The notes beneath the pieces were generated by a model that was not told where the DNA came from, ran no database searches, and worked only from the letters and a program-made list of their open reading frames with translations. A stretch of 61,735 bases of DNA. It comes from Patescibacteria group bacterium. GTDB lineage: Bacteria > Patescibacteriota > Patescibacteriia > UBA2196. The position numbers and the translations under genes were made by a program. Location of the stretch: NCBI GenBank assembly GCA_036845805.1, contig DAIUDD010000001.1:169594-231328 (forward strand), read 5' to 3'. The stretch's first letter is position 1. Each line of letters begins with the position of its first letter. This document shows positions 39,375 to 58,015 of the stretch, one piece after another.

Positions 39375-40676
39375 ATGAACACTAATATTAAAACTATCAT
39401 TGCTAGAGAAATTTTAGATTCGCGCAGTAATCCCACCATAGAAACAGAAATCACTCTCGACTGTGGACTAAAAGCCAAGGCCTCGGTACCTTCTGGCGCT
39501 TCAACTGGCATTCATGAAGCTTTGGAACTTCGCGATCATAATAAAAAAAGATATCATGGTCAAGGCGTTTTAAAAGCTTGTGAAAATGTTAACAAAAAAA
39601 TCGCCAATTATTTAAAGGGTGGGGAGATTTTTAATCAAGAAAAAATTGACAATTTAATGCTTAAACTAGATGGCACTAAAAACAAAGCCAAACTTGGCGC
39701 CAATGCTATGCTTTCTGTTTCGCTTGCCGTTGCTCGCGCCGCTTCGCTCGCCAAAAATAAAGAATTGTATGAATACTTAAATTCAATTTACACATTACCC
39801 ATTACTCGCTACGCATTACCCACCCCCATGTTCAACATCTTTAATGGCGGCGCTCATGCCGATTCCAATGTTAACATTCAGGAATTTATGATTATTCCTG
39901 CCGGCCTTAAAAAATATTCTGATCAACTACGCGCTGGCTCGGAAATTTTTCATAGCCTTGGAGTTGTTTTGAAAAAAAATAATTTGGACACCGATGTGGG
40001 TAATGAGGGTGGCTATGCCTGTAATGTTAAAAAAACGGAAAAAATTTTTGATTTAATTATGGAAGCGATAAAACTTGCTGGCTATAAAGCCGGCAAAGAA
40101 ATATTTTTAGGTCTTGATGCTGGCGCTTCAGAATTTTATGATAAAAAATCTAAAAAATATAATTTAAAATTAGAGCAAAAAAAAATAAACGCCGAAAAAT
40201 TAATTAATTTATATAATTCTTGGTTAGCCAAATATCCCATAATTTCTCTTGAAGACCCACTAGCCGAAGACGATTTCTCTGGTTGGCAACTCCTTTCTAA
40301 AAAAATTAAAAAATCCAATTACACATTACCCATTACACATTACACATTACTCCTCGTTGGCGACGACCTTTTCACTACCAATACTGAAAGATTAAAAAAT
40401 GGTATAGAAAAAAACTTGGCCAATGCAGTTATTGTCAAACCCAATCAAATCGGCACTCTAACCGAAACTTTTAATTTTATTAAATTAGCTAAAGAAAATA
40501 ATTATAAAATAGTTGTCTCTCATCGCTCTGGCGAAACTAATGACGATTTTATTGCCGATTTAGCAGTTGCTGTCAATGCTGATCTTGTTAAATTTGGCGC
40601 GCCGAGTAGGGGAGAGCGCGTAGCTAAATACAACCGCCTTCTCGCCATTTCCAATGATCCTGAATTTAAAAATTAA
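39375..40676 (+). CDS. eno: Enolase
   Basis: REILDSR.NPT, PSGASTG, VGDDLF, SHRSGET, ERVAKYNRLL. Confidence 0.97.
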   Translation: MNTNIKTIIAREILDSRSNPTIETEITLDCGLKAKASVPSGASTGIHEALELRDHNKKRYHGQGVLKACENVNKKIANYLKGGEIFNQEKIDNLMLKLDGTKNKAKLGANAMLSVSLAVARAASLAKNKELYEYLNSIYTLPITRYALPTPMFNIFNGGAHADSNVNIQEFMIIPAGLKKYSDQLRAGSEIFHSLGVVLKKNNLDTDVGNEGGYACNVKKTEKIFDLIMEAIKLAGYKAGKEIFLGLDAGASEFYDKKSKKYNLKLEQKKINAEKLINLYNSWLAKYPIISLEDPLAEDDFSGWQLLSKKIKKSNYTLPITHYTLLLVGDDLFTTNTERLKNGIEKNLANAVIVKPNQIGTLTETFNFIKLAKENNYKIVVSHRSGETNDDFIADLAVAVNADLVKFGAPSRGERVAKYNRLLAISNDPEFKN

Positions 40677-48090: not shown

Positions 48091-48465
48091 ATGCGTCACA
48101 TCCACCACACCACTAATTATTTTTCTACCAAGACATTATTTTGGCTCTTGTGCTTAATATTTTTATTTACCTCTTTTGCTATTTATAAACAACTTAATCG
48201 TCAAAAACAAATTGATCTAAGTAACGAAAAAATAAAAAATGACATTGTTCAATTAGAAGCACAAAATAAAGAATTAGAACAATTAATTGCTTATTTTAGT
48301 AGTTCGGAATTTGTGGAAAAAGAAGCCCGCGAAAAACTCAACATGGCCAAACCCGGTGAAAAAACCCTGGTTATCACTCAAGACAAAAACACAATCATAA
48401 ATAATCAAGAAAAAAAACAAACCTCTAATCCCCTTGGTTGGTGGCAATATTTTTTTGGTAAATAA
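48091..48465 (+). CDS. Septum formation initiator (FtsB/DivIC-like)
   Basis: TM, coiled coil, EKEAREKLNMAKPGE. Confidence 0.85.
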   Translation: MRHIHHTTNYFSTKTLFWLLCLIFLFTSFAIYKQLNRQKQIDLSNEKIKNDIVQLEAQNKELEQLIAYFSSSEFVEKEAREKLNMAKPGEKTLVITQDKNTIINNQEKKQTSNPLGWWQYFFGK

Positions 48466-48513
48466 ACTGAATAATTATTATAACTCTGAACTTTAATTCA
48501 GATATAAAGTAAC

Positions 48514-48588
48514 GCGGGTATCGTATAATGGCTATTATGTATCCTTCCCAAGGATAAAATACGGGTCCGATTCCCGTTACCCGCTCCA
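48514..48588 (+). tRNA. tRNA-Gly(CCC)
   Basis: GCGGGTA/TACCCGC acceptor, TATCC-TTCCCAA-GGATA arm, encoded CCA; T-loop TCCGATT is non-canonical. Confidence 0.9.
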
Positions 48589-48611
48589 CAATAAAAATTA
48601 ATTTTAAAAAT

Positions 48612-48923
48612 ATGTTAAATTCTAAATTTATTATGCGTGGTCTTATGCACAGTCTCTTAGTGATTCTATACATTGCCCTAGTTGCCTGTATTATGTCTAA
48701 TGCTGAACACTGGTTTGGCCAAATGAATGGCGCCATTGGTGCTTCTGCATTTTTACTTTTATTTGTCTTATCTGCTACCATTGTTGGTAGTTTGGTTTTA
48801 GGTAAGCCACTTTTACTTTATCTTGAAAATGAAAAGAAAAATGCTTTGACTTTGTTTTTTTATACTGTCACTTGGCTTTTTGTCTGGTTGATATTATATT
48901 TTATAATCCTGGCAATTATATAA
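48612..48923 (+). CDS. Small three-TM hypothetical protein
   Basis: 103 aa hydrophobic ORF, LLLFVLSATIVGSLVLGKP. Confidence 0.75.
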   Translation: MLNSKFIMRGLMHSLLVILYIALVACIMSNAEHWFGQMNGAIGASAFLLLFVLSATIVGSLVLGKPLLLYLENEKKNALTLFFYTVTWLFVWLILYFIILAII

Positions 48924-48930
48924 TTTAACC

Positions 48931-49199
48931 GCCACCTTAGCTCCGCCGCATTTTGCGGGGCAAGCAACTGGCCCGCCCGCAACGCCTCGCAAGCTCGGCT
49001 TGCGTGGCAGGCGAGTAGCCTCTGGCCCTACGGGCCATATGCTAGGGAGGGAGCAACGGTATCGCCCGCCTGCCAAAGCCATCTTAGCTCAGCTGGTAGA
49101 GCAACGCATTCGTAACGCGTAGGTCGTCGGTTCAAATCCGACAGATGGCTCTGGCGGGCAGGTAAACCAAGGTTCCCGGTTCAAGCCCGGGAGGTGGCT
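48931..49199 (+). pseudogene. Split outer tRNA-Thr enclosing hairpins and a complete tRNA
   Basis: GCCACCT/AGGTGGC acceptor, GCTC/GAGC D stem, CCCGG-TTCAAGC-CCGGG T arm; inserts 48944-49050 and 49065-49162. Confidence 0.7.
49078..49150 (+). tRNA. tRNA-Thr(CGT), intact, nested
   Basis: Full cloverleaf; ACGCA-TTCGTAA-CGCGT anticodon arm; GTCGG-TTCAAAT-CCGAC T arm. Confidence 0.93.
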
Positions 49200-49230
49200 T
49201 TTATAAAAAATAAAAAATCATAAAACTTTT

Positions 49231-50097
49231 ATGTCAATACCCAAATTATTACTTTATTACTTTATTACTTTATTACTTATTTCTTCTTATCATTCTGCTC
49301 ATGCTGCCGAACTTTCCACTTCCACTCCAACGACCACCGACCAAATAAATCCGGTTATCACCGAACCTTGGACAAAATACGAATCTATCCACGCAATTGA
49401 TAATAATATTAACAATTATTATTATCTTAATAATGGCCAAAATAATTTTTCTATTTATATTAAAAAAGAAACCAGCGCGCAAAATTTAAATCTGGTGCTA
49501 CGTGAACTTGGTTATAACTGGATTCCAACTGGTCCAACAATTGATGAAAAAGGCAATCAAACCAATTTGGAAAGGATTTCTTTTGCTTATGAATATGATT
49601 TCATTAGCGACCAAAAAATCAGACCATTTGCTTTACCCATTACTTTAAATTTCAAAACAGATATTCTTTATGATATTCACGGCAACACCGATATGCGCCG
49701 CAAAATTATTCACTATTGGGACAAAGGCAGGGGAGTCTGGCGCCCGCTGCCAACTGTCACTGATTTAGCGCACAATATTGCTGCCGCGCGAACTTATTTA
49801 CCCTATAGTATTCTTGCTGTTTTTATGGCGCAAAACGAATTTGATGCTTATGCTTCTTGGTATCCAGACTCACTCACGCCTAGTTCAAAATATAACGGTG
49901 CCTCCAATAATTATAAAATTGGCACTTATGTTAAGGTTTGCCGTTTAGATAATCTGGCAAAATGTGTTAAAATTAAAATAGTTTCTACTGGTCCTTATGT
50001 TGATAACCGCATTGTGGATCTAACCAAAACTGCTTTTCAAACCATTGGTAATCCCGGCGGCGGCATTGTCGGCGTCAGAGTTATCCCGGTCAAATAA
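49231..50097 (+). CDS. Secreted protein with C-terminal RlpA-like double-psi beta-barrel
   Basis: Signal peptide; YASWY..GTYVKV..TGPYVDNRIVDLTKTAF. Confidence 0.75.
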   Translation: MSIPKLLLYYFITLLLISSYHSAHAAELSTSTPTTTDQINPVITEPWTKYESIHAIDNNINNYYYLNNGQNNFSIYIKKETSAQNLNLVLRELGYNWIPTGPTIDEKGNQTNLERISFAYEYDFISDQKIRPFALPITLNFKTDILYDIHGNTDMRRKIIHYWDKGRGVWRPLPTVTDLAHNIAAARTYLPYSILAVFMAQNEFDAYASWYPDSLTPSSKYNGASNNYKIGTYVKVCRLDNLAKCVKIKIVSTGPYVDNRIVDLTKTAFQTIGNPGGGIVGVRVIPVK

Positions 50098-50175
50098 GTT
50101 TAATTTTTCTCCTTTATACTCTTAAATCTTAAATCATAAATCTTACCTCTAAAATTTTGTCCCTTAATTTCTTAT

Positions 50176-50229
50176 TTTCTGGTTGCTTCAGCAACCATCC
50201 CGCCGTGGCGGGATGAAAGCAGAGCTTTC
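50176..50229. repeat. 54-nt twin-hairpin element, copy 1
   Basis: GGTTGC-TTCA-GCAACC plus CATCCCGCC-GT-GGCGGGATG; second copy at 51952. Confidence 0.8.
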
Positions 50230-50255
50230 AATTTCTTAATTTCTTTATTTCCTTT

Positions 50256-50936
50256 ATGATCGAATTTCGTAATGTCACCAAAATCTATGAGCCCAATGTT
50301 CACGCGCTCAATCACGCCACTTTCCATATTAAACCCGGGGAGTTTGTTTTTTTAGTAGGCCAATCGGGCACTGGCAAAACCACTGCTGTCCGTCTTTTAA
50401 TTTCCGAAGAAAAAGTTAGTAATGGCCGGATTATCGTTGGCGGCTGGGACATTACTCATATTCGCCGCAAACATATTCCACTTTTACGTCGCCAAATTGG
50501 CGTGGTTTGGCAAGATTATAAATTATTACCCAAAAAAACAGTTTTTGAAAATGTGGCCTTTGCTTTAGAAGTTTCTGGCGCAGAAAAAGAACGTATTCAA
50601 AAAATTGTGCCACAGGTCTTAAAAATTGTCGGCTTGCAAGATAAAACCAATCGTTACCCAACGCAGCTTTCTGGTGGTGAGCAACAAAGAGTTTCCATTG
50701 CCCGTTCGCTTGTCCATCGCCCTAAAATTTTAGTCGCCGATGAACCAACGGGAAATCTTGACACCGTTAACACCCGCGAAATTATAGATATCCTGCAAAA
50801 AATAAATGAATTCGGCACTACTGTTCTTCTGGTTACGCACAACCGAGAAATTGTTAACTCTCTAAAAAAAAGAGTTATTACATTAGAAAAAGGTCTAGTT
50901 ATTTCTGATCAAGAAAAGGGCCGCTATATGTTATAA
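50256..50936 (+). CDS. ftsE: Cell division ATP-binding protein FtsE
   Basis: GQSGTGKTT, RRQIGVVWQDYKLL, LSGGEQQRV, ADEPTGNLD. Confidence 0.95.
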   Translation: MIEFRNVTKIYEPNVHALNHATFHIKPGEFVFLVGQSGTGKTTAVRLLISEEKVSNGRIIVGGWDITHIRRKHIPLLRRQIGVVWQDYKLLPKKTVFENVAFALEVSGAEKERIQKIVPQVLKIVGLQDKTNRYPTQLSGGEQQRVSIARSLVHRPKILVADEPTGNLDTVNTREIIDILQKINEFGTTVLLVTHNREIVNSLKKRVITLEKGLVISDQEKGRYML

Positions 50937-50995
50937 GTTAAATTTTACTTTATCTCTTAAATTTGATTTTTTAATTTTGAATTAATATTATTCCC

Positions 50996-51913
50996 ATGTT
51001 TCTTCTTTCTTTAACTCGCATTATCCGTTTTGCTTTGCAAAACTTCTATCGAAACATCTGGCTTTCATTGGTCACCATAACCATTATAGTTTTAACTTTA
51101 TTATCTCTTACCTCTCTTATTATTCTTAATGCTGGCGTTAATCAAACCATTATCACTGTCAAAAACAAAATTGATGTTTCATTATATTTTACGCCCAATA
51201 TTGATACCGAGACCGTCAGTTTAATTAAAGAACAAATTGGTAAATATGCTACTGTCGCCGAAGTAAATTTAATCAATGCCACTCAAGCTCTAGAAAAATT
51301 TAAAAACGCTCACGCCAATGATTCAACCATTAAGGAGGCTCTTAATCAACTGGAAACAAATCCTTTGGGGCCAACCTTGACGATCAAAGCTAAAAATGCT
51401 AATTTATATCCACAAATTTTAGAACAAATTAAAAAAGACAAGTTAGATACTCTCGCCGAGGAAATTGATTATGATGATAATAAATTAGTCATTGAAAAAT
51501 TGTCAGTCATTGGTCAAAAAATTAAAAAGGTTGGTTTTATCATCAGCATTGTCTTTACCATCATTTCTTTACTCGTGGTTTTTAATACTATCCGTATTGG
51601 AATTTATACGCATCGAGAAGAAATAAACATTATGAAACTGGTTGGCGCAGAAAATTGGTTTGTCCGTTTGCCATTTTTATTCGAGGGCGCGCTCTATGCT
51701 TTTATCGGTTGTTTATTTTTTTGGTTAATCTTTTATCTCGCCGTCAGTCTTATTCAACCCTTTCTTTCTAGTTTCTTAATTGATATCAATTTTAATATCA
51801 TGTCATATATTTGGGATCATTTTATTTATATTTTCGGCTTTGAATTAATTTTAATGATCGTGCTTAATACCATTTCCGGCTTTGTCGCGATTAGCAAATA
51901 TCTGCGCACCTAA
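50996..51913 (+). CDS. ftsX: Cell division permease FtsX
   Basis: Four TMs; NTIRIGIYTHREEINIMKLVGA..PFLFEG. Confidence 0.95.
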   Translation: MFLLSLTRIIRFALQNFYRNIWLSLVTITIIVLTLLSLTSLIILNAGVNQTIITVKNKIDVSLYFTPNIDTETVSLIKEQIGKYATVAEVNLINATQALEKFKNAHANDSTIKEALNQLETNPLGPTLTIKAKNANLYPQILEQIKKDKLDTLAEEIDYDDNKLVIEKLSVIGQKIKKVGFIISIVFTIISLLVVFNTIRIGIYTHREEINIMKLVGAENWFVRLPFLFEGALYAFIGCLFFWLIFYLAVSLIQPFLSSFLIDINFNIMSYIWDHFIYIFGFELILMIVLNTISGFVAISKYLRT

Positions 51914-51951
51914 TAAAAATTTTGTTTTTCCAGTATTTCTTAATTTCTTTA

Positions 51952-52005
51952 TTTCTGGTTGCTTTAGCAACCATCCCGCTATAGCGGGATGAAAACAGGG
52001 CTTTC
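51952..52005. repeat. 54-nt twin-hairpin element, copy 2
   Basis: Direct copy of 50176-50229 with a compensatory stem change. Confidence 0.8.
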
Positions 52006-52025
52006 TGTTTCTTTATTTCTCATAT

Positions 52026-52096
52026 TGCGGGGTCGTCTAGCGGTAGGACATCAGGTTTTGGTCCTGATTACCGGGGTTCGAATCCCTGCCCCGCAG
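52026..52096 (+). tRNA. tRNA-Gln(TTG)
   Basis: TGCGGGG/CCCCGCA acceptor, TCAGG-TTTTGGT-CCTGA arm, TTCGAAT T-loop. Confidence 0.93.
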
Positions 52097-52164
52097 AAAA
52101 TAAAAATCAGCTTGGGCTGTTTTTTATTTTGACTTTTTTCCTCTAAACAGAGATAATTAAATAT

Positions 52165-52356
52165 ATGCTCTGTGCCCAAACCGGAAATCTTAAACATTGT
52201 CCGTGCACTTATCCCAATTGCGACAAAAAGGGGAAATGTTGCGAATGTTTAAAATATCACCTAGCTAGTCAAGAATTACCAGCTTGTTGTTTTAATCAAA
52301 AAACCGAAAAAACTTTTGATCGCTCTTTTAGTCGTTTTATTATTGATCATCAATAA
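52165..52356 (+). CDS. Small Cys-rich protein (DUF6485-like)
   Basis: CPCTYPNC..KGKCCECLKYH...LPACCF. Confidence 0.75.
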   Translation: MLCAQTGNLKHCPCTYPNCDKKGKCCECLKYHLASQELPACCFNQKTEKTFDRSFSRFIIDHQ

Positions 52357-52359
52357 TTT

Positions 52360-53109
52360 ATGCCTGCCTTTTATAAAAAATCATTTCTGTTTGATCCAGA
52401 AAAAAAGGAACCTTTTCGTTTATCACGAACTAAATTAGAATTATTTATTAATTGTCCCCGCTGTTTTTATTTAGATCGCCGGCTTGGTATTAGCCGGCCG
52501 TCTGGTCCACCTTTTACTTTAAATTCGGCCGTAGATAAATTATTAAAAAAAGAATTTGACATTCATCGCGCCAAAAGCACCACTCATCCTTTGCTTAAAA
52601 ATTATCATCTTGATTTAGTGCCTTTTAACCATGAAAAAATTAATGAGTGGCGCGAAAATTTTGTTGGCGTTTCTTTTTTGCACCAAGCCACTAATTTAAA
52701 TATTTTCGGCGCCATTGACGATCTCTGGACTGATGGCAACGAACTCTATGTAGTTGATTATAAATCCACCAGTAAAAACGAAGAAATAACCGAGCTCAAT
52801 AGCGACTGGCATGAGGCATATAAACGGCAAATGGAAATCTACCAATGGCTTTTGCGCCATAATGATCTTAATGTTTCTGATACTGGCTATTTTGTTTATT
52901 GCAACGGCAATACCGATAAAGAAGCGTTTGACGGCCGCCTAGAATTTGATTTAACTTTAATTTCTTATCATGGCAATGACTCTTGGGTCGAACCAACTAT
53001 TATTAAAGCACATGAATGTTTAATCTCTACAAAAATTCCTGCTCCCAATAAAGAATGCGAATATTGTAACTATATTACTTCGCTTGAAAAAATAAATAAA
53101 AAAATATGA
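52360..53109 (+). CDS. PD-(D/E)XK nuclease (Cas4/RecB-like), stand-alone
   Basis: SRTKLE..CPRCF, GAIDD, VVDYKS, QMEIYQW, C-terminal CEYC. Confidence 0.85.
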   Translation: MPAFYKKSFLFDPEKKEPFRLSRTKLELFINCPRCFYLDRRLGISRPSGPPFTLNSAVDKLLKKEFDIHRAKSTTHPLLKNYHLDLVPFNHEKINEWRENFVGVSFLHQATNLNIFGAIDDLWTDGNELYVVDYKSTSKNEEITELNSDWHEAYKRQMEIYQWLLRHNDLNVSDTGYFVYCNGNTDKEAFDGRLEFDLTLISYHGNDSWVEPTIIKAHECLISTKIPAPNKECEYCNYITSLEKINKKI

Positions 53110-53348
53110 AAAGACTTCTCACCTCCCAACTCATCTTATTATTAATCGGCACACTTTTTGCCTGGACTAATTTTATTATTGAATTAATTCATTGGCTTAA
53201 CCAAACCACTAACCAGCTTGGCTGTTTTACTGCCACTAAAAACCCATTTTTGACTCCCTGCTTTTACGGCGCCATATTTTTTACTCTGGCCTTTATTTTA
53301 AGCGTTATAAGTGTCAAAAAATTTACTCATATTGAAGACAAAAAATAA
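53106..53348 (+). CDS. Small two-TM protein with a Cys pair
   Basis: 80 aa; GCFTATKNPFLTPCFYGAIFF; overlaps the upstream stop. Confidence 0.6.
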   Translation: MKRLLTSQLILLLIGTLFAWTNFIIELIHWLNQTTNQLGCFTATKNPFLTPCFYGAIFFTLAFILSVISVKKFTHIEDKK

Positions 53349-53394
53349 AAAACAAAAATACTTGACAAATCATACAGATTTACTTATACTTACA

Positions 53395-53527
53395 AATAAG
53401 TTGTGTCTGACCCAGCTAAGACGCGACTTTGACACACAACGCTGAGCTGGTTTTCTCGGTCAGCTTTAACAGCCGACCGATCATGCTTCACAGCGGAGAT
53501 GCAACCCAATGCACTCCGCTTTTTTAT
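53395..53527 (+). ncRNA. Candidate small structured RNA with its own promoter and terminator
   Basis: TTGACA-17-TATACT (53362-53390); pseudoknot-capable stems; AGCGGAG/CTCCGCT-T7 terminator. Confidence 0.5.
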
Positions 53528-53742
53528 TTTATAAAATTATCTTTTGTGTTTTACTTATTACATATTACAAATTATTTATTACACATTATAAGTTTTTCCC
53601 TTACTTTCTCTATTTCTTAATTTCTTATTTTCTTAAACTTTGACTTTTCCTCCACAAAATGAAATAATTATCTTGTTTTATTAATCTTTAATTTTGACTT
53701 TATTTTTAAGATTTGACATTTGAATTTCGAGTTCATAATTTT

Positions 53743-54798
53743 ATGTCCTTCCAAATCGGCATTGTTGGTTTGCCCAACGTTGGCAAGTCAACCCTTTTCA
53801 AGGCCCTAACAAAAAAACAAGTTGATGCTGCTAATTATCCTTTTTGCACTATTGATCCCAATGTTGGTGTGGTGGCAGTACCAGACCAAAGGCTAGACCA
53901 ATTAGCCAAGGTTTCTAATTCTGAAAAAATTATTCCGACTACCATTGAGTTTGTTGATATTGCCGGCTTAGTTAAAAACGCTCATAAAGGCGAAGGGCTT
54001 GGCAATCAGTTTTTGGCACACATCCGCGAAGTTGATGCGATTATTGAAGTTGTCCGCGAATTTAAAGATGAAAATGTCATTCATGTGGAAGGTTCAGTTG
54101 ATCCCAAGCGCGACCAAGACATTATTCACTTAGAATTAATTATGGCTGATTTGCAAACCATCACAAAAAGAATTCACTCGGCTGAACATGAAGTAAAATC
54201 TGGTGATAAAGAAGTGATAAAATTATTAAACATTCTGCAATCTTTAAAAAATACTTTAGATCAAGGCAAATTGGCCAGCGAAGCTAATTTAACCGAAGAA
54301 GAAAAAAAATCGATTAAAGAACTTTCGCTTTTAACTCTAAAACCAATTATTTATGTCAAAAACATTGATGACACTTTGACGCTTGACACTCTGACACCTG
54401 ACACTATCGCCATCAATGCCAAATTGGAAGCCGAATTAGCCGAACTTAAAGATGAAGAATTAAAAGATTATCTTAAAGAATTAGGCATAGAAAAAACCGG
54501 CCTTGATAAATTAATTGTGGCCAGTTATAATATTCTTGATTTAATTACTTTTTTAACTTCCGGCCCTAAAGAATCGCGCGCCTGGACCATTCAAAGGGGG
54601 ACCAAAGCGCCGGAAGCCGCTGGTGTTATTCATACTGATTTTGAAAAAAATTTTATTCGCGCTGAAGTTTGTAATTGGCAAGATTTTGTTAAATTAGGTG
54701 GCGATGCCGGCGTCAAAGAAAAAGGCTTAATGCGTCTGGAAGGTAAAGATTATGTGATGCAAGATGGTGACACAGTATATTTTAGAGTCAATACTTAA
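53743..54798 (+). CDS. ychF: Ribosome-binding ATPase YchF
   Basis: GIVGLPNVGKSTLF, DIAGLV..GEGLGNQFL, APEAAGVIHTDFE; start at MSFQIG. Confidence 0.97.
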   Translation: MSFQIGIVGLPNVGKSTLFKALTKKQVDAANYPFCTIDPNVGVVAVPDQRLDQLAKVSNSEKIIPTTIEFVDIAGLVKNAHKGEGLGNQFLAHIREVDAIIEVVREFKDENVIHVEGSVDPKRDQDIIHLELIMADLQTITKRIHSAEHEVKSGDKEVIKLLNILQSLKNTLDQGKLASEANLTEEEKKSIKELSLLTLKPIIYVKNIDDTLTLDTLTPDTIAINAKLEAELAELKDEELKDYLKELGIEKTGLDKLIVASYNILDLITFLTSGPKESRAWTIQRGTKAPEAAGVIHTDFEKNFIRAEVCNWQDFVKLGGDAGVKEKGLMRLEGKDYVMQDGDTVYFRVNT

Positions 54799-54927
54799 TT
54801 AAAAATAATCAAGAAACAAGATACAATTTCCAAATAAATTTCAAACCTCAAATTTCAATTACTAAATTTTTTGGTTATTGATTATTGTTTGGAAATTGGA
54901 ATTTGTATCTTGGAAATTTATTACTTT

Positions 54928-55530
54928 ATGTCTCATCCCAAAACAGAACGCACCTTAGTTTTAATCAAACCCGATGGTGTGCAGCGCTCGCTCATTGGTG
55001 AAATAATTCACCGCTTAGAAAGAACTGGCCTTAAACTGGTGGCTGCTAAATTTATTATGGCCACCAAAGAGCAGGGCTATGAACATTATAAAAAAGAAGA
55101 AGATTGGCTCGAAGAAAAAGGCGCCAAAAGAATTACCCAAAGGCAAGCTGAAGGTAAACCAATTGAAAAATCAGCCCGTGAATATGGCCTCGATATTGTT
55201 AATGCTAATGTCAGTTTTATTACTGCTGGTCCAATTGTGCCGATGATCTGGGAAGGAAATAAAGCGGTGGGTATTATTAAAAAAATTGTCGGCGGCACCG
55301 AACCTTTAACTTCCGACGTCGGCACAATCAGGGGCGATTTAACTATGGATTCTTATGATATTTCGAATTTAGACGAACGTTGCGTCCGTAATCTTATTCA
55401 TTGCACCGATGATCCAAAAGAAGCCGCGCGTGAAATAGCGATTTGGTTTAAACCAGAAGAAATTTTAAATTATCGTCTTCTTAATGAAGCTATTCTCTAT
55501 GATATTAATCTAGATGGCATTAAAGAATAA
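54928..55530 (+). CDS. ndk: Nucleoside diphosphate kinase (long form)
   Basis: ERTLVLIKPDGVQR, GTIRGD, RNLIHCTD; start at MSHPK. Confidence 0.93.
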   Translation: MSHPKTERTLVLIKPDGVQRSLIGEIIHRLERTGLKLVAAKFIMATKEQGYEHYKKEEDWLEEKGAKRITQRQAEGKPIEKSAREYGLDIVNANVSFITAGPIVPMIWEGNKAVGIIKKIVGGTEPLTSDVGTIRGDLTMDSYDISNLDERCVRNLIHCTDDPKEAAREIAIWFKPEEILNYRLLNEAILYDINLDGIKE

Positions 55531-55630
55531 TTTCTTTCTCCTTAATTTTAATCTCTTTTTTTTCTTGACACTTTGACACCGGACACTCTGACACTTATTT
55601 TGACCGCTCTCCCTAAAACTGTTATTATAA

Positions 55631-55866
55631 AAGCGCCTCGCAGAAACCATTTTCCTCAATCATTTCTACAACCATTTCTCGTTGGAAAACATATTTTGCC
55701 GCTCTTCTGGTTAGACCAGGGAATGCCAATGAGTTTTCCCGCGATCATTATCACGGCCTTTGGTTTGCCCGGACTCGGATTTACTAAGTCTGCGGCAAAA
55801 CACTGGCCAGATCCGTTTCTTAAACGGAATTGATTGTTGTGATTTTGTCATCCTGCGGGGTGTTTT
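55631..55866 (+). ncRNA. Candidate ~235-nt rod-like structured RNA (6S-like?)
   Basis: TTGACC-17-TATTAT promoter; 5'/3' closing stem; inner TTTTGCCGC/GCGGCAAAA stem. Confidence 0.35.
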
Positions 55867-55876
55867 AATTATTTAT

Positions 55877-56163
55877 CGGGGTGTCGTATACCGGTAGTAC
55901 GCGTCCATGGGGGTTGAAGCGATTAGCTTCAACGGGCGAGGAGGTTTGCCTGTGGCAAACCACCACAAGCCCAGGCTTTTATTTTTTATTTCGGGCTATA
56001 GCGCAGTTGGCTAGCGCGCATGCATGGGGTGCATGAGGTCGGCAGTTCAAATCTGCCTAGCCCGAAAGAAAAAATAAAAGATGTAGACGGGGTTCACCCT
56101 GCACCATAAAGGTGCATGGTAGCCCTAAACCTTTATGGTTTAGGACAATTCACCGCACCCCGA
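55877..56163 (+). pseudogene. Split outer tRNA-Pro enclosing hairpins and a complete tRNA
   Basis: CGGGGTG/CACCCCG acceptor, GTAT/GTAC D stem, CGTCC-ATGGGG; inserts in anticodon and T loops. Confidence 0.7.
55992..56065 (+). tRNA. tRNA-Pro(GGG), intact, nested
   Basis: Full cloverleaf; CATGC-ATGGGGT-GCATG arm; GGCAG-TTCAAAT-CTGCC T arm. Confidence 0.93.
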
Positions 56164-56179
56164 TAAAAGTGTAGAATGA

Positions 56180-56346
56180 GGGTGCATGAGGGTTTAAAAG
56201 ACACACTGTGTCTTTTAAACCAGTTCAAATCCGGCTACCCCGATAATTAAGACATTAAAATTATAGATCGGGTTCACCTTGCACCATAAAGGTGCAAGGT
56301 AGTCCTAAACCTTTATGGTTTAGGGCAATTCCCCGCACCCCGACCA
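56180..56346 (+). repeat. Two further tRNA-Pro 3'-half fragments with hairpin inserts
   Basis: TTCAAATCCGGCTACCCCGA ending 56243; near copy of 56084-56163 at 56264-56346 ending ACCA. Confidence 0.7.
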
Positions 56347-56384
56347 ACTGAAAGAAAACAAACTTATGGTTTGTACTACTTATT

Positions 56385-56960
56385 ATGCCACCTAATCTAA
56401 TCTGCCAAGATAAAACCGACGAAGACTTGGTTTCCTTGACACTTAAAAATAATGATTACTTTTCTTGTCTGATGAGCCGCTATGAACAGCGACTTTTGTT
56501 TTATATTATCCGGCTCTCCGGTTTTAAAAAAGATGAAGCGGAAGATGTTCTGCAGGAAACATTTATCAAAACTTTCTATCATTTAAGTGATTTTGACAAA
56601 AAACTTAAATTTTCTTCCTGGCTTTATCGAATTACCCATAACGAAACCATTAATGCATTGAAAAAAAAGAAAAGTAAAATAATTATTAACTTAACAACCG
56701 AAGATTGGCAAAACATTGCCACTAAAAACAATCTCAAAGAAGAAATCGCGGCAAAAATTAATCAAGAAAAAATTAAACAATTAATTAACCACCTGGAACC
56801 AAAATATCAAGAAGTTATAATTTTAAAATTTTTAGAAGATTATAGTTATGAAGAAATTTCAGATATTTTGCAAAAACCAACTGGCACTATTGCGACCCTG
56901 CTTAATCGCGCTAAAAAAAAATTAAAACAAGAATTTATAAAAATTAATTTTACCTATTAA
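56385..56960 (+). CDS. ECF RNA polymerase sigma-70 factor
   Basis: AEDVLQETF, KFSSWLYRITHN, YSYEEISDIL..GTIATLLNRAKKKL. Confidence 0.93.
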   Translation: MPPNLICQDKTDEDLVSLTLKNNDYFSCLMSRYEQRLLFYIIRLSGFKKDEAEDVLQETFIKTFYHLSDFDKKLKFSSWLYRITHNETINALKKKKSKIIINLTTEDWQNIATKNNLKEEIAAKINQEKIKQLINHLEPKYQEVIILKFLEDYSYEEISDILQKPTGTIATLLNRAKKKLKQEFIKINFTY

Positions 56961-56965
56961 CTTAT

Positions 56966-57694
56966 ATGATAGTCCAAGATCGGGTCCTCAGAAAAATTAA
57001 ACAAGAAAAAATAAAACCGTTGCCACCAACCATCTTTTTAATTAAACGAGTTGCTTTTTGGTTTTTAACCATTCTTTCATTTTTGTTGACCGCTCTTATT
57101 ACTTCTCTGGTTATTTTTTTATTAGCTAATCAAGATTGGGATATCTATCAAAAATTTACTTCCCATCAAACCTTATTCCTTTTTTGGGTTTTGCCATATT
57201 TTTGGCTAATTATCTGGTTTATTTTTATCTGGTCACTTTATTACAACTACCGCCACACCAAATATGGCTATCGCACTAAAATCAGCCAACTTACGATCTT
57301 TTCTTCTACATTGATTTTAATATTCGGCTATACTTTTTATTCTTTTGGCTGGGGTTATAAAATAGAAAATTACTTTTTTCAAAAATCAAATTTTTATAAC
57401 CAAATCAACAATAACCGTCTAATATGGGACAACGCTACTAAAGGACTCTTGGCTGGACAAATCATTAAAACAGAAAAAAGCCAAATTATTTTAAAAGATT
57501 TAAAAAATAAAGAATGGCAAATTATTTTTAATCAATTGGATACCAATAGTAATTTAATACCTGGGCAAAAAATAAAAATAATTGGCCAACCAGTTGACTC
57601 GCAAACATTTTTTGCTTCCGAAATAAGAAATTGGTGCGGTTGTGGCGGCTGTCTTGAAAGTAATAATCTTTGCGCCAATGGCTGTAATCATTAA
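56966..57694 (+). CDS. Membrane protein (possible anti-sigma) with beta domain and Cys-rich tail
   Basis: Three TMs directly after the ECF gene; ends WCGCGGCLESNNLCANGCNH. Confidence 0.65.
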   Translation: MIVQDRVLRKIKQEKIKPLPPTIFLIKRVAFWFLTILSFLLTALITSLVIFLLANQDWDIYQKFTSHQTLFLFWVLPYFWLIIWFIFIWSLYYNYRHTKYGYRTKISQLTIFSSTLILIFGYTFYSFGWGYKIENYFFQKSNFYNQINNNRLIWDNATKGLLAGQIIKTEKSQIILKDLKNKEWQIIFNQLDTNSNLIPGQKIKIIGQPVDSQTFFASEIRNWCGCGGCLESNNLCANGCNH

Positions 57695-57781
57695 AATTGA
57701 AAGAAAAAAAATTGAAAGAAAAAACAAAATTTTGATGTATTATTATAATGAGGCCTCTCATTTATAATTAAAACTATTTTT

Positions 57782-58015
57782 ATGAATAAACTCTGGTATT
57801 TTGGCGGCTTATTAACTTTTATCGTTGCCGCTGTCGTCGTTATTGGCGCCGTTAACGCTTCTGACAATAAAAATTTGCCGGCAACAGAAAAAAGCTCTAC
57901 CCCAACAGTCCAAACTAAAAGCTGTGGTTGCCAGGTTAAATCTCAATGTGGCGGCACTTGTCAAGCCAACAACTGTCAATGCGGTTCTTCTTGTGCCATG
58001 AATCAAGCTAAATAA
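57782..58015 (+). CDS. Exported Cys-rich small protein (7 Cys)
   Basis: Signal peptide; SCGCQVKSQCGGTCQANNCQCGSSCAM; terminator at ~58027-58056. Confidence 0.65.
   Translation: MNKLWYFGGLLTFIVAAVVVIGAVNASDNKNLPATEKSSTPTVQTKSCGCQVKSQCGGTCQANNCQCGSSCAMNQAK

Follow-up and report, generated by a model that had tools for sequence, protein, structure and literature searches.

In an ultra-small bacterium of the Candidate Phyla Radiation, two tRNA genes are each split by a compact insert that consists of inverted repeats and a working copy of the same tRNA. Relatives repeat this pattern at several of their tRNA genes. It thus seems to be a means, so far undescribed and probably mobile, by which essential tRNA genes are replaced. 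No published description of such a nested replacement tRNA was found in the literature. We assign a probability of about 60% to the reading that, in each nest, a compact cassette has broken a resident single-copy tRNA gene, the cassette being a complete tRNA with the same anticodon between inverted repeats. The window analyzed here is the whole stretch of 61,735 nucleotides. An earlier note on this DNA had proposed a loop-targeting insertion that complements the gene it disrupts; its observation was confirmed, and its interpretation was partly supported.

tRNA genes in the window

ARAGORN and Rfam called only four tRNAs, Gly-CCC, Thr-CGU, Gln-UUG, and Pro-GGG, in the window. The Gly and Gln genes were located as follows:

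48514–48588, tRNA-Gly(CCC), called by ARAGORN and Rfam
52025–52097, tRNA-Gln(UUG), called by ARAGORN and Rfam

No self-similar fragments were found at the Gly and Gln loci of the window, which are plain, as had been described. At the other two of the four loci, Thr and Pro, a complete tRNA with the same anticodon was placed on an inverted-repeat stalk between the halves of an outer gene, in agreement with the nested design first noticed. The inner tRNAs scored 67.1 bits (Thr) and 62.2 bits (Pro) with RF00005, for which the cut-off is 29, indicating a cloverleaf with a standard anticodon loop. The Thr and Pro loci folded far better than shuffled sequence, with z = −4.4 and −12.3, respectively, and the minimum-energy fold of the Thr nest retained the stalk and the inner cloverleaf.

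The tRNA-Thr nest

The Thr nest was composed of the following parts:

48880–48907 (+), promoter-like site TTGTCT-16-TATAAT, 24 nt upstream of the 5′ end of the outer tRNA-Thr
48931–48943 (+), positions 1–13 of the outer (resident) tRNA-Thr(CGU), GCCACCTTAGCTC, with the acceptor strand complementary to 49192–49198
48944–49050 (+), inserts in the outer D region (hairpin, D-loop remnant, and multi-hairpin insert)
48944–48964 (+), D-region hairpin of the outer tRNA-Thr
48965–48971 (+), D-loop remnant CAACTGG of the outer tRNA-Thr
48972–49050 (+), 79-nt GC-rich multi-hairpin insert with a second, degenerate arm pair, CCCGCCCGCA...GGCAGGCGAG
49051–49064 (+), outer tRNA-Thr positions 22–35, GAGCAACGGTATCG, ending after the second anticodon base
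49065–49077 (+), left arm CCCGCCTGCC (49065–49074) and AAA spacer
49078–49151 (+), inner intact tRNA-Thr(CGU), the presumed working gene (ARAGORN; RF00005), or 49078–49150 in the breakdown of the nest
49152–49162 (+), right arm (T)GGCGGGCAGG, with the arm proper at 49153–49162
49163–49199 (+), outer tRNA-Thr positions 36–73 (TAAACC...GGTGGCT)

The inverted repeat (49065–49084 and 49143–49162) was 20 nt long and 85% complementary, and the non-tRNA part of the anticodon-loop insert amounted to only about 25 nt. Relative to the L005/L100-inner type, the 3′ strand of the outer anticodon stem carried one substitution and a 1-nt deletion. The left arm was found again in the Thr nest of the relative L092 and, in reverse-complement form, in that of L100. 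The start of the 79-nt insert resembled the leader upstream of tRNA-Gln#2 in L103. The D-region inserts at 48944–48964 and 48972–49050 had gone unmentioned in the earlier note.

The tRNA-Pro nest

The Pro nest contained the following parts:

55877–55912 (+), 5′ half, positions 1–36/37, of the outer resident "type A" tRNA-Pro(GGG)
55913–55972 (+), two hairpins at the anticodon-loop break, HP1 (55913–55933) and HP2 (55934–55972)
55976–55990 (+), AT-rich left arm CTTTTATTTTTT and ATT
55991–56066 (+), intact inner tRNA-Pro(GGG) of "type B", presumably the working gene (ARAGORN; 62.2 bits)
56069–56080 (+), AT-rich right arm AAAAAATAAAAG
56081–56163 (+), type A 3′ fragment, copy 1, family D12 (variable region, T arm, and acceptor 3′ strand)
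56180–56243 (+), type B-like 3′ half, GGGTGCATGAGG...AGTTCAAATCCGGCTACCCCGA, with a 31-nt perfect hairpin instead of the T-stem 5′ strand
56262–56343 (+), type A 3′ fragment, copy 2, at the ancestral site, with CCAACTG directly after it (likewise in L005 and L004)

The outer 5′ half was 94% identical to positions 1–36 of the intact tRNA-Pro(GGG) of L005 (E = 2e-10), and the inner tRNA was 93% and 90% identical to the tRNAs of L004 and L095, respectively. The inverted repeat (55976–55998 and 56058–56080) was 23 nt long, including the acceptor stem, and 96% complementary, and a remnant of the right arm, AAAATAAAA, was retained in L004. The nest first described at this locus is present, but the locus is messier than that description, with three 3′ fragments after the inner tRNA, within 280 nt of tRNA-Pro and with no island between. 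No further tRNA-Pro fragment was found beyond the variable downstream genes. Copy 1, which has a double-hairpin insert of about 50 nt in its T loop, was orthologous to L005 positions ~41–73 and to a fragment in L004. The resident tRNA-Pro originally had copy 2, the ancestral partner of the 5′ half, as its 3′ half, and the type B-like 3′ half is a relic of an earlier replacement. In silico joining of AGTTCAAATCCGGCTACCCCGA to the outer 5′ half did not restore a tRNA.

Nests in related genomes

A cross-genome scan, which the earlier note had suggested, revealed that the nested pattern recurs in other genomes and at other isoacceptors. Among the relatives, "Ca. Kuenenbacteria" and their neighbours, the design was found at Thr (two more nests, in L092 and L100), at Gly, and partly at Gln and Pro. 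The cargo anticodon was that of the disrupted gene in all 11 tallied instances, full nests as well as partial duplications (listed as three Thr, two Gly, one Pro plus two partial, and five partial Gln), and the isotypes were thus concordant throughout. The proposal of a replacement tRNA carried into its cognate gene was also supported, the outer halves being the resident cognate gene and the tRNA between the inverted repeats a complete replacement. The anticodon loop is not the sole target, however, as the homologous Thr cassette of L100 lies at a different site, where it splits the D stem at the 23/24 boundary.

By sequence comparison, the cargo belonged to a different lineage of the same isoacceptor, and the outer halves were orthologous to the intact tRNA of relatives. 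The outer and inner tRNA-Thr of the window were of types I and II, respectively, and those of L100 were reciprocal; in both genomes, the two copies were of different lineages with 70–77% identity. In two of the three Thr nests, the cargo was closer to tRNAs of other lineages than to its own outer gene. The inner tRNA-Thr of L092 and L100 were 89% identical and shared the acceptor GCCCYTT. The outer exons of L092 differed from the intact tRNA-Thr of its sister L089 at two bases only, of which one is in the T loop and the other is position 72.

The Thr and Gly inserts had common GC-rich arms, CCYGCCYGCC/GGCRGGCRGG. The form CYCGCCTGCC/GGCGGGYAGG was present in the Thr nests of the window and L092 and the form CCTGCCCGCC/GGCAGGCGGG in that of L100, and the Gly nest (L089 and L092) had the same right arm as the Thr nests. 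Helix 2 of the cassette covaried, with GCCA/TGGC versus GCCT/AGGC. The arms were also detected at L004 11929–11948; within the window, the exact arm motif was confined to the Thr nest. Empty or small-cargo versions of the arms occurred in the T loop of L004, at L100 11303–11336 (an intergenic hairpin), and at 48972–49015 of the window, and small cargo-less hairpins were present in the D region and T loop of outer genes. The terminal inverted repeats were thus conserved in several copies and contexts, as in REP- or MITE-like elements. There was no target-site duplication, the outer tRNA sequence being continuous across the insert in the window, L092, and L100. At the Pro nest, the AT-rich arms were unrelated to these GC-rich ones, as the earlier note had observed for the two repeats of the window, so that the evidence for a single element family does not reach to Pro.

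Nests might instead arise locally without a mobile element, if palindrome-stimulated template switching or replication slippage duplicated a tRNA gene into itself and gene conversion followed. The inner and outer tRNA-Thr of L092 differed in the acceptor stem only, their bodies being identical, so that local duplication or gene conversion would fit this nest as well. GC palindromes, known hot spots for template switching, abound in these genomes, and quasi-palindrome correction can mimic compensatory hairpin changes without selection. We nevertheless regard a local origin as unlikely. The reciprocal, divergent tRNA-Thr lineages of the window and L100, and the type B tRNA inside a type A gene at the Pro locus, argue against it, as does the presence of the same arms and helix 2 around the cargo in three genera and two isoacceptors.

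Spread and machinery

At tRNA-Gly, both alleles exist in one species: the gene is intact in L090 and L091 and nested in L089. Downstream, L089 and L090/L091 were 99.99% identical across 11.4 kb; upstream, they shared 97.1% identity across 452 bp, and the outer Gly 5′ half of L089 was partly of the donor type. As in homing, one site has alleles with and without the insert, and its flanks are co-converted, but ordinary recombination is an equally good reading, since the tract extends for at least 450 bp on one side. The loop-targeting insertion proposed in the earlier note gained no support here: the one transfer that could be documented replaced an allele by homologous recombination across 450 bp or more and was not a loop-specific transposition.

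Neither a nuclease nor a transposase nor an integrase was detected in or near either nest of the window; we therefore assign no machinery to the insertion step, the mechanism of which is inferred. The suggested search for co-occurring nucleases or transposases was negative in the window, including a tblastn search for GIY-YIG proteins, and positive only at tRNA-Gln duplications of relatives. There, a UPF0213-type GIY-YIG protein (PF01541) was encoded between the 5′ fragment and the complete tRNA-Gln in L095, L103, L225, and L235; it was truncated in L092 and gone in L089. The linkage was limited to these Gln units, which are 5′-fragment duplications and not full nests, and the UPF0213 GIY-YIG family has no demonstrated homing activity. 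No tyrosine or serine recombinase was found within about 10 kb of any nest examined, by Pfam annotation covering ~46–61.7 kb of the window and ~5 kb of the source contig past its end; nor did Pfam scans reveal one in the ORFs that follow the nest in the window and in L004.

This last result bears on whether the fragments are scars of integrase-mediated island integration and excision at tRNA genes, that is, att-site duplications. Three tRNA-Pro 3′ fragments lie downstream of the working gene, the genes downstream of tRNA-Pro vary among the window, L004, L005, L100, and L102, and L074 contains a tandem 214-nt unit ending in the 17-nt 3′ end of tRNA-Glu, all of which would agree with such scars. 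Integrase scars, however, are 3′ fragments only and would leave the upstream 5′ halves, the complete cargo tRNAs, and the inverted-repeat stalks unexplained; the inserts are about 100 nt long, with no island between the halves. Together with the lack of a recombinase near the nests, this makes the explanation decidedly improbable.

Which tRNA works

The inner tRNA is very probably the working gene, given the lesions and additional small hairpins of the outer genes. The outer T loop of L092 could not be restored to TTCGATT, and the outer Gly gene was damaged in the acceptor in L092 and in the arms in L089. When the outer Thr pieces were joined in silico and the inserts removed, ARAGORN called tRNA-Thr(cgt) in the window, L092, and L100; in silico joining did not restore a tRNA from the own sequence alone of the outer Pro and Gly genes. 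The sole promoter-like site of the Thr nest was upstream of the outer 5′ end, and none was found between that end and the inner tRNA-Thr. Judged from this arrangement, the TTGTCT-16-TATAAT site presumably drives the whole nest, and the inner tRNA could plausibly be released from a nested precursor.

Two comparisons, which weigh against the cassette reading, show the outer parts to be more than neutral junk. The non-inner parts of the Gly nest were 87% identical between L089 and L092, as against only 59–60% at four-fold sites, and the double hairpin of the Gln 5′ fragment was near-invariant, with one compensatory change, while the host GIY-YIG proteins were 67–73% identical. Two readings are left: constraint on the outer parts in the role of leader, trailer, or homology arms, or nests of more recent origin than their hosts.

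Another possibility is that the outer tRNA is functional, with the hairpins and the tRNA-bearing insert removed from the RNA so that one precursor gives two tRNAs. The inserts lie at or beside loops, as in archaeal multi-intron tRNAs, the outer gene of L100 is otherwise perfect, and evolution of the outer parts is slower than that of four-fold sites. The rRNA genes of the Candidate Phyla Radiation, too, have many short inserts that are not introns, at the tips of stem-loops (PMC11270868). Lesions would remain after splicing, however, in the window (Thr and Pro), L092 (Thr and Gly), and L089 (Gly), which makes splicing of the outer tRNA unlikely. The outer tRNA would be redundant, as its anticodon is that of the inner one, some loci keep one half only, and the junctions lacked a bulge-helix-bulge (BHB) motif and a group I/II ribozyme. 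We consider a functional outer tRNA very improbable.

Covariance models over 48400–56500 gave no Intron_gpI or group II match at E ≤ 5. A BHB, in which a 4-bp helix is flanked by 3-nt bulges on opposite strands, would be expected at both exon–insert junctions; inspection of the window, L092, and L100 showed no staggered bulges there. Between the anticodon stem and the 10-bp helix that abuts the junction lies a 4 × 3 internal loop, and this helix is followed in L092 and L100 by a 3 × 3 loop, a 4-bp helix, and a 2 × 1 loop. The view that integrase scars and group I/II introns fit poorly thus stood, with no recombinase and no ribozyme match, and it applies to archaeal BHB introns likewise.

The window was assembled from a metagenome, and assemblers can be misled by repeats of tRNA-like sequence. 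An artefact of assembly or binning is nevertheless effectively refuted, because the nests are identical in independent assemblies: the Thr nest base for base in ENA ERZ795056 and JGI 3300009783, the Pro region in ERZ795056 NODE_7200 and JGI 3300010355, and the L092 nests in three data sets (ENA, JGI, and Logan). The nests are therefore not the chimeras that the earlier note had kept in mind, and more cases exist in relatives.

Comparison with known systems

Like the nests, integrative elements and islands with tyrosine-integrase att sites in the anticodon or T loop target tRNA genes; their incoming sequence keeps the tRNA functional, displaced fragments form direct repeats, and adjacent genes vary. 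The nests differ in that they bring a whole tRNA and not a 3′ part alone, and both resident halves remain. The insert is about 100–350 nt long, with inverted-repeat arms and no integrase nearby.

Group I introns occur in the anticodon loops of bacterial tRNAs. Homing-endonuclease elements resemble the nests in invading an essential conserved gene with its function preserved, flanks serving as homology arms, and, at tRNA-Gly, in presence and absence alleles with co-converted flanks; the Gln duplications of relatives share with them an embedded GIY-YIG gene. Unlike these elements, a nest preserves function by a spare gene and not by splicing, and has no ribozyme. The nests of the window have no endonuclease gene, and the GIY-YIG proteins of relatives are single-domain UPF0213 proteins with no demonstrated site specificity. 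Besides the group I introns, homing-endonuclease elements comprise free-standing GIY-YIG genes, such as SegB in the tRNA cluster of phage T4 (PMC2330249), and "fractured genes" (PMC2677866).

In archaea, disrupted tRNA genes (multi-intron, split, and permuted, with intron transposition in Thermoproteales) likewise have inserts in the D, anticodon, and T regions, related inserts in different tRNAs, and GC-rich complementary sequences flanking the break, and the box C/D RNA in the tRNA-Trp intron is a second functional RNA inside a tRNA gene. The nests, in contrast, occur in a bacterial host and lack a BHB; their outer gene is redundant as well as damaged, and the embedded RNA is a full tRNA with the same anticodon. 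The rRNA inserts of the same radiation, many of them short, ORF-less, non-intron, and placed at the tips or bases of stem-loops, are similar to the nest inserts, and some encode GIY-YIG proteins; they must be removed or tolerated, whereas the nests target tRNA and carry a replacement gene. REP/BIME and MITE-type repeats resemble the arms in being imperfect palindromes, short and GC-rich, that occur in several copies and vary in the centre. REP-type elements, like the nests, make no target duplication. Such elements are not known to carry a tRNA between their arms or to lie inside the cognate tRNA gene, and no RAYT or transposase was identified for the nests in the DNA covered, which for the contig of the window was about 72 kb of 722 kb.

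Proposed mechanism

Under the cassette reading, only insertions into a cognate gene would survive, because the cargo complements the gene that is broken. The inner tRNA would be transcribed from the resident promoter inside the nested precursor and freed by RNase P and 3′ processing, and the stalk would stop it from mispairing with the near-identical outer halves. Once formed, a nest could move between genomes by homologous recombination, in which the conserved ends of the outer tRNA and the flanking DNA would serve as homology arms; a nuclease-made double-strand break may drive this transfer, for which the UPF0213-type GIY-YIG protein is a candidate. Hairpins of the same kind but without cargo would persist solely in copies already dead, and this would account for their abundance in the D, anticodon, and T loops of the outer halves. 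With time, the loss of one or both outer halves would leave a plain but replaced tRNA gene.

tRNA genes of the window and the nested tRNA-Thr locus

Searches of the whole window by ARAGORN and Rfam yielded four tRNA genes, all on the + strand. In 48400-56500, Rfam (gathering score and E ≤ 5) found these four tRNAs alone, with group I/II introns, tmRNA, and other families absent from the flanks. The gene neighbourhood was bacterial (LepA, DivIC, an RlpA-like DPBB protein, FtsE, FtsX, YchF, and Ndk). The nearest genomes found were Patescibacteria, one of them labelled Candidatus Kuenenbacteria, with FtsX identities of 63-67%. The window is a portion of a contig 722 kb long (JGI sample 3300010355).

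tRNA genes in the window (ARAGORN, Rfam)
48514-48588, +, tRNA-Gly-CCC
49078-49151, +, tRNA-Thr-CGU
52025-52097, +, tRNA-Gln-UUG
55991-56066, +, tRNA-Pro-GGG

The tRNA-Thr locus is a nest, in which the halves of an outer, disrupted resident tRNA gene surround an inner complete tRNA with the same anticodon, flanked by inverted-repeat arms. The resident gene is broken between anticodon bases 35 and 36.

Features of the tRNA-Thr nest (outer positions in the tRNA numbering of the resident gene)
48931-48943, +, outer tRNA-Thr positions 1-13, GCCACCTTAGCTC
48944-48964 and 48972-49050, +, two D-region inserts, with the D-loop remnant CAACTGG between them
49051-49064, +, outer tRNA-Thr positions 22-35, GAGCAACGGTATCG
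49065-49074, +, left arm CCCGCCTGCC, then AAA
49078-49151, +, intact inner tRNA-Thr, after the left arm and AAA and before CT
49153-49162, +, right arm GGCGGGCAGG, preceded by CT
49163-49199, +, outer tRNA-Thr positions 36-73, TAAACC...AGGTGGCT

The arms and the inner acceptor stem form an inverted repeat of 20 nt with 85% complementarity, and the minimum-energy fold of the locus retains both the stalk and the inner cloverleaf (z = -4.4). When joined in silico, the outer pieces were called as tRNA-Thr(cgt) by ARAGORN. Even so, the outer gene carries damage: its anticodon-stem 3′ strand reads ACCA- instead of the required ACCGT. Because of their several inserts, the outer genes went uncalled when ARAGORN was run with introns permitted. 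The sole promoter-like site at the locus precedes the outer 5′ end by 24 nt, a position that fits a leader role for the outer 5′ part. The nested arrangement described in the earlier note was confirmed, and the entire Thr locus was base-identical in the ENA ERZ795056 and JGI 3300009783 assemblies. Short tandem repeats occur at the start of the DPBB gene (8-mer TTATTACT, 49244-49288) and, as ATTACNC-type heptamers, in intergenic DNA at 53550-53599 and 40304-40353.

Nested tRNA-Thr and tRNA-Gly genes in relatives

Syntenic loci (L numbers) were obtained through FtsX and DPBB-protein homologues; a genome-collection scan with FtsX as the query gave four relatives only. Nests recurred across genomes, for tRNA-Thr in L092 and L100 and for tRNA-Gly in L089 and L092. 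Plain Thr genes were present in L005, L006, L089, L095, L098, and L103; that of L088 is cut by the contig start, and an outer 3′ half is absent downstream of it.

The tRNA-Thr of L092, a locus identical across three data sets, is split at 35/36 like that of the window, by CTCGCCTGCC-AAA-GCCAGA-[tRNA-Thr]-GTGGC-GAT-GGCGGGTAGG, and has additional hairpins in the D region and the T loop. Its outer exons differ from the uninterrupted gene of L089, a sister species, at one T-loop base and position 72 only. A homologous cassette (arms plus inner tRNA) in L100, CCTGCCCGCC-CTA-GCCTGA-[tRNA-Thr]-AAGGC-GAT-GGCAGGCGGG, occupies a different resident tRNA-Thr at a different site, the D stem, which it splits between positions 23 and 24. 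L092 and L100 share 89% identity in their inner tRNAs, and the second helix of the cassette covaries (GCCA/TGGC in L092 versus GCCT/AGGC in L100). The anticodon loop is not the sole target: the breaks of the window, L092, and the Gly nests are at 35/36, and that of L100 is in the D stem.

tRNA-Thr(CGU) falls into two lineages; the window has type I outside and type II inside, and L100 has the reverse. The cargo, at least in the window and L100, therefore derives from another lineage rather than from a local copy.

The nested tRNA-Gly(CCC) genes of L089 and L092 are broken at 35/36 and have an 8-bp second helix, and their right arm matches that of the Thr nest (ATT-GGCGGGCAGG|CAAGG). Outside these cassettes, such arms form a free-standing intergenic hairpin in L100 (11303-11336) and lie within a D-region insert of the window. 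Scans of viral contigs for the arm pair with a tRNA-sized gap, the double hairpin of the Gln units described below, and the CCCCGTAAA...ACGGGG hairpin gave chance matches only, with tRNA-bearing arms absent, and a phage origin of the cassettes is therefore without support.

A hairpin whose outer stem is conserved, TCCCCGTAAA(A/G)...ACGGGGCA, and whose inner hairpin varies was observed in the D region of Gly, Thr, and Gln 5′ fragments, at the same D-region position within one genome (L089 9340-9375 and 12990-13030; L092 9515-9550, 9756-9790, and 12650-12685). Two readings fit: a small mobile palindrome that favours one position, or a conserved RNA motif.

Fragment and complete gene shared the anticodon in all 11 instances (Thr ×3, Gly ×2, Pro ×3, and Gln ×5, partial cases counted). 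A same-strand self-similar piece within ≤450 nt accompanied 13 of 44 tRNAs at 14 Patescibacteria loci versus 6 of 43 tRNAs in 80 mostly unrelated loci, the latter mainly at tandem genes or in further Patescibacteria; this comparison is a rough one only. The control set came from one metagenome scan with a YchF query, and its 80 loci were mostly from unrelated bacteria, none syntenic with the window.

The tRNA-Pro locus

The outer Pro 5′ half (55877-55912) matches, at 94% identity, positions 1-36 of an intact gene, the tRNA-Pro(GGG) of L005, designated type A. The inner tRNA-Pro is intact and of a second type (type B), 93% identical to the L004 tRNA and 90% to the L095 tRNA. Three 3′ fragments lie downstream of it.

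Features of the tRNA-Pro nest
55913-55933 and 55934-55972, +, two hairpins 3′ of the outer Pro 5′ half
55976-55987 and 56069-56080, +, perfect 12-bp AT-rich inverted repeat around the inner tRNA-Pro
56081-56163 and 56262-56343, +, two type A 3′ fragments, 86% alike
56180-56243, +, type B-like 3′ half, with a 31-nt perfect hairpin in place of the T-stem 5′ strand

The type A fragments consist of the variable region, a T arm with a double hairpin of ~50 nt in the T loop, and the acceptor 3′ strand. The fragment at 56262-56343 is at the ancestral position, being followed by CCAACTG as in L005 and L004. Among the relatives, L005 has the intact type A gene and an additional 5′ fragment, whose D loop bears a hairpin; in L004, a type A 3′ fragment comes after type B; and L095 has type B only. 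The T loop of the L004 fragment contains a perfect palindrome, CCTGCCTGCC|GGCAGGCAGG, that is, arms without cargo. Of the design that had been read at this locus, the 5′ half, the inverted repeat, and the inner tRNA stood; AGTTCAAATCCGGCTACCCCGA was rejected as the partner of the 5′ half on in-silico joining. The design is present, yet the locus is a record of more than one replacement round.

A noncoding stretch of ~240 nt between ndk and the Pro nest (55630-55872, +) is shared, in conserved form, by the window, L004, L005, and L095. A strong promoter-like site (55600-55628; TTGACC-17-TATTAT with TG) and a terminator-like hairpin accompany it, and its consensus fold contains 55 pairs, 18 of which show compensatory changes. 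Since this stretch had no Rfam match, it is probably an undescribed structured RNA. A near-identical GACAC-rich sequence of ~30 nt (GACACTTTGAC...CTCTGACAC) occurs inside the ychF CDS (54378-54412) and in the promoter region upstream of this RNA (55564-55597). Between the Pro nest and rpmB, 56385-58015 encodes an ECF-type sigma factor and two ORFs without a family match; no recombinase was found there. The same spot holds XRE-type regulators in L005 and L004 and almost nothing in L100.

Intact and nested alleles of tRNA-Gly

One species has alleles of both kinds. The three loci L089, L090, and L091 encode the same DPBB protein; tRNA-Gly is nested in L089 and intact (GCGGGTATCGTATAGTGGCTATTATGTGTCCTTCCCAAGGATAAGATACGGGTTCGATTCCCGTTACCCGCT) in L091 and in L090, which comes from the sample that also yielded the window. 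L089 and L090/L091 are 99.99% identical over 11.4 kb downstream of the nest and 97.1% identical over 452 bp upstream, and the D-arm 3′ side and anticodon stem of the L089 outer 5′ half are of the L092 type, not that of L090. One tRNA-Gly allele was therefore exchanged for the other through homologous recombination; the tract has one of its ends within the tRNA 3′ half and extends leftward.

In a comparison of L089 with L092, identity is 59-60% at four-fold degenerate sites, 71/71 positions in the inner tRNA-Gly, and 127/146 (87%) in the nest outside it. The structure-breaking differences are in the arms in L089 and in the acceptor in L092. The outer halves are not entirely junk, since they diverge at less than the neutral rate: either horizontal exchange has made the nest more recent than the separation of the two species, or constraint acts on the outer parts in the role of transcribed leader and trailer or of homology arms.

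The tRNA-Gln units and the GIY-YIG gene

In L095, L225, and L235, a unit was found that consists of a tRNA-Gln 5′ fragment (positions 1-21), a double hairpin (TCGCC-N5-GGCGA CCCRCC-N5-GGYGGG), GACA, and an intact ORF of 83-91 aa, with a complete tRNA-Gln 12 nt after the ORF. The second stem in L225 is CCCACC/GGTGGG, a compensatory change. The unit follows ftsX in some genomes and dnaX in others, and its ORF encodes a GIY-YIG domain protein (PF01541) of the UPF0213 family. This gene is truncated in L092 and lost in L089, and L103 has two tRNA-Gln genes around it. The pattern looks like the cycle of invasion, decay, and loss of a homing endonuclease gene; the UPF0213 protein is a candidate nuclease from a family not known for homing activity. 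A GIY-YIG gene accompanies the Gln units of relatives only, and a tblastn search found none in the window. Recurring 82-aa ORFs beside tRNAs in relatives were rejected as nucleases; they encode Transgly_assoc, membrane, or unknown proteins.

Several further elements were noted. An 82-nt element with three GC-rich hairpins occurs in two copies at 87% identity (50163-50244 and 51939-52020), one directly upstream of ftsE and the other 4 nt upstream of tRNA-Gln; the loops and one stem diverge with pairing retained. Between tRNA-Gln and ychF, 52165-53348 encodes a DUF6485 protein, a Cas4-like PD-(D/E)XK nuclease (249 aa), and an 80-aa ORF; ychF directly follows tRNA-Gln in L005, and this is a second variable segment adjoining a tRNA gene. 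The GC-richer intergenic region 53380-53515 (+), which contains several hairpins and terminates in a hairpin and T-run (AGCGGAG...CTCCGCTTTTTT), may encode a small RNA; it had no Rfam match. L225 (1852-3100) and L231 differ by the presence and absence of a methyltransferase gene just downstream of the GIY-YIG/tRNA-Gln unit, the contigs being otherwise identical. Downstream of tRNA-Glu in L074 (7580-8020, - strand), a 214-nt unit is present twice in tandem; each copy contains a terminator-like hairpin and has the final 17 nt of the tRNA at its end, as though a miniature element had integrated on two occasions at the tRNA 3′ end. L100 (3423-4330) has a tandem duplication of a gene for an 82-aa membrane protein and tRNA-Val, the second tRNA-Val copy being decayed with extra sequence in the T arm.

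Proposed mechanism and relation to known systems

We propose that a tRNA on a palindromic stalk inserts into the cognate resident gene. The inner tRNA would use the resident promoter, ordinary tRNA-processing enzymes would cut the nested precursor, and the stalk would insulate the inner tRNA from the near-identical outer halves. Only cognate nests would be seen because insertion of a non-cognate tRNA would be lethal. Cargo-less hairpins of the same kind would pile up in the dead outer copies, nests may pass between genomes through recombination on conserved tRNA ends, possibly nuclease-driven, and the outer halves would eventually be lost. The interpretation in the earlier note was upheld in part. 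The sequences show the nested architecture, the orthology of the outer halves, the heterologous cargo, the arms in common, the polymorphism of alleles, and the lesions; we infer transcription, processing, the selection filter, and the insertion chemistry.

In how they work, the nests come closest to integrative elements that target tRNA genes and to homing elements of essential genes. They belong to neither class; no integrase or ribozyme was found at the nests, and no endonuclease in the window. That neither a classical integrative element nor a ribozyme intron fits agrees with the earlier reading, no group I/II intron having been found and no integrase downstream of tRNA-Pro in the window or L004. 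The insert positions are like those of archaeal disrupted tRNAs, but the nests have a redundant, damaged outer gene and lack the BHB motif, which was not found by eye at any junction. The arms behave like REP/MITE palindromes, without target duplication. The nests also echo the short non-intron inserts at stem-loop tips in rRNA genes of the same radiation (PMC11270868). In full-text literature searches on tRNA genes of this radiation that are nested or interrupted, we found no description of a complete tRNA nested in a cognate bacterial tRNA gene.

In its widest form, our reading is that Patescibacteria have active 'disrupt-and-complement' selfish cassettes, in which a palindromic-stalk tRNA inserts in stem-loop-coding DNA and is fixed only in the cognate essential tRNA gene that it replaces, with interspecies spread by break-induced recombination on conserved tRNA halves and a UPF0213 GIY-YIG protein as the starting nuclease. 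This is tentative, with a probability of roughly 0.3.

Significance

Streamlined bacteria have, as a rule, one copy per tRNA gene. The nests point to a route of exchange, in which a foreign tRNA with the same anticodon inside the resident gene would take over promoter and function while the old halves decay. For annotation, half-tRNAs and hairpin-laden pseudo-tRNAs in MAGs can be mistaken for introns or split tRNAs, or a tRNA can be scored as missing. Occupants of essential genes otherwise rely on splicing (introns, inteins) or on 3′-end restoration (integrases); if the cassettes are mobile, carrying a complete spare gene would be a third way. The findings give the UPF0213 GIY-YIG family a testable role and tie tRNA genes to the unexplained short inserts at rRNA stem-loop tips in the same radiation. 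If the full reading is true, it would establish a new class of mobile element and a general mechanism of tRNA-gene turnover in streamlined genomes, and would provide the widespread, functionless UPF0213 GIY-YIG proteins with a role as starting nucleases.
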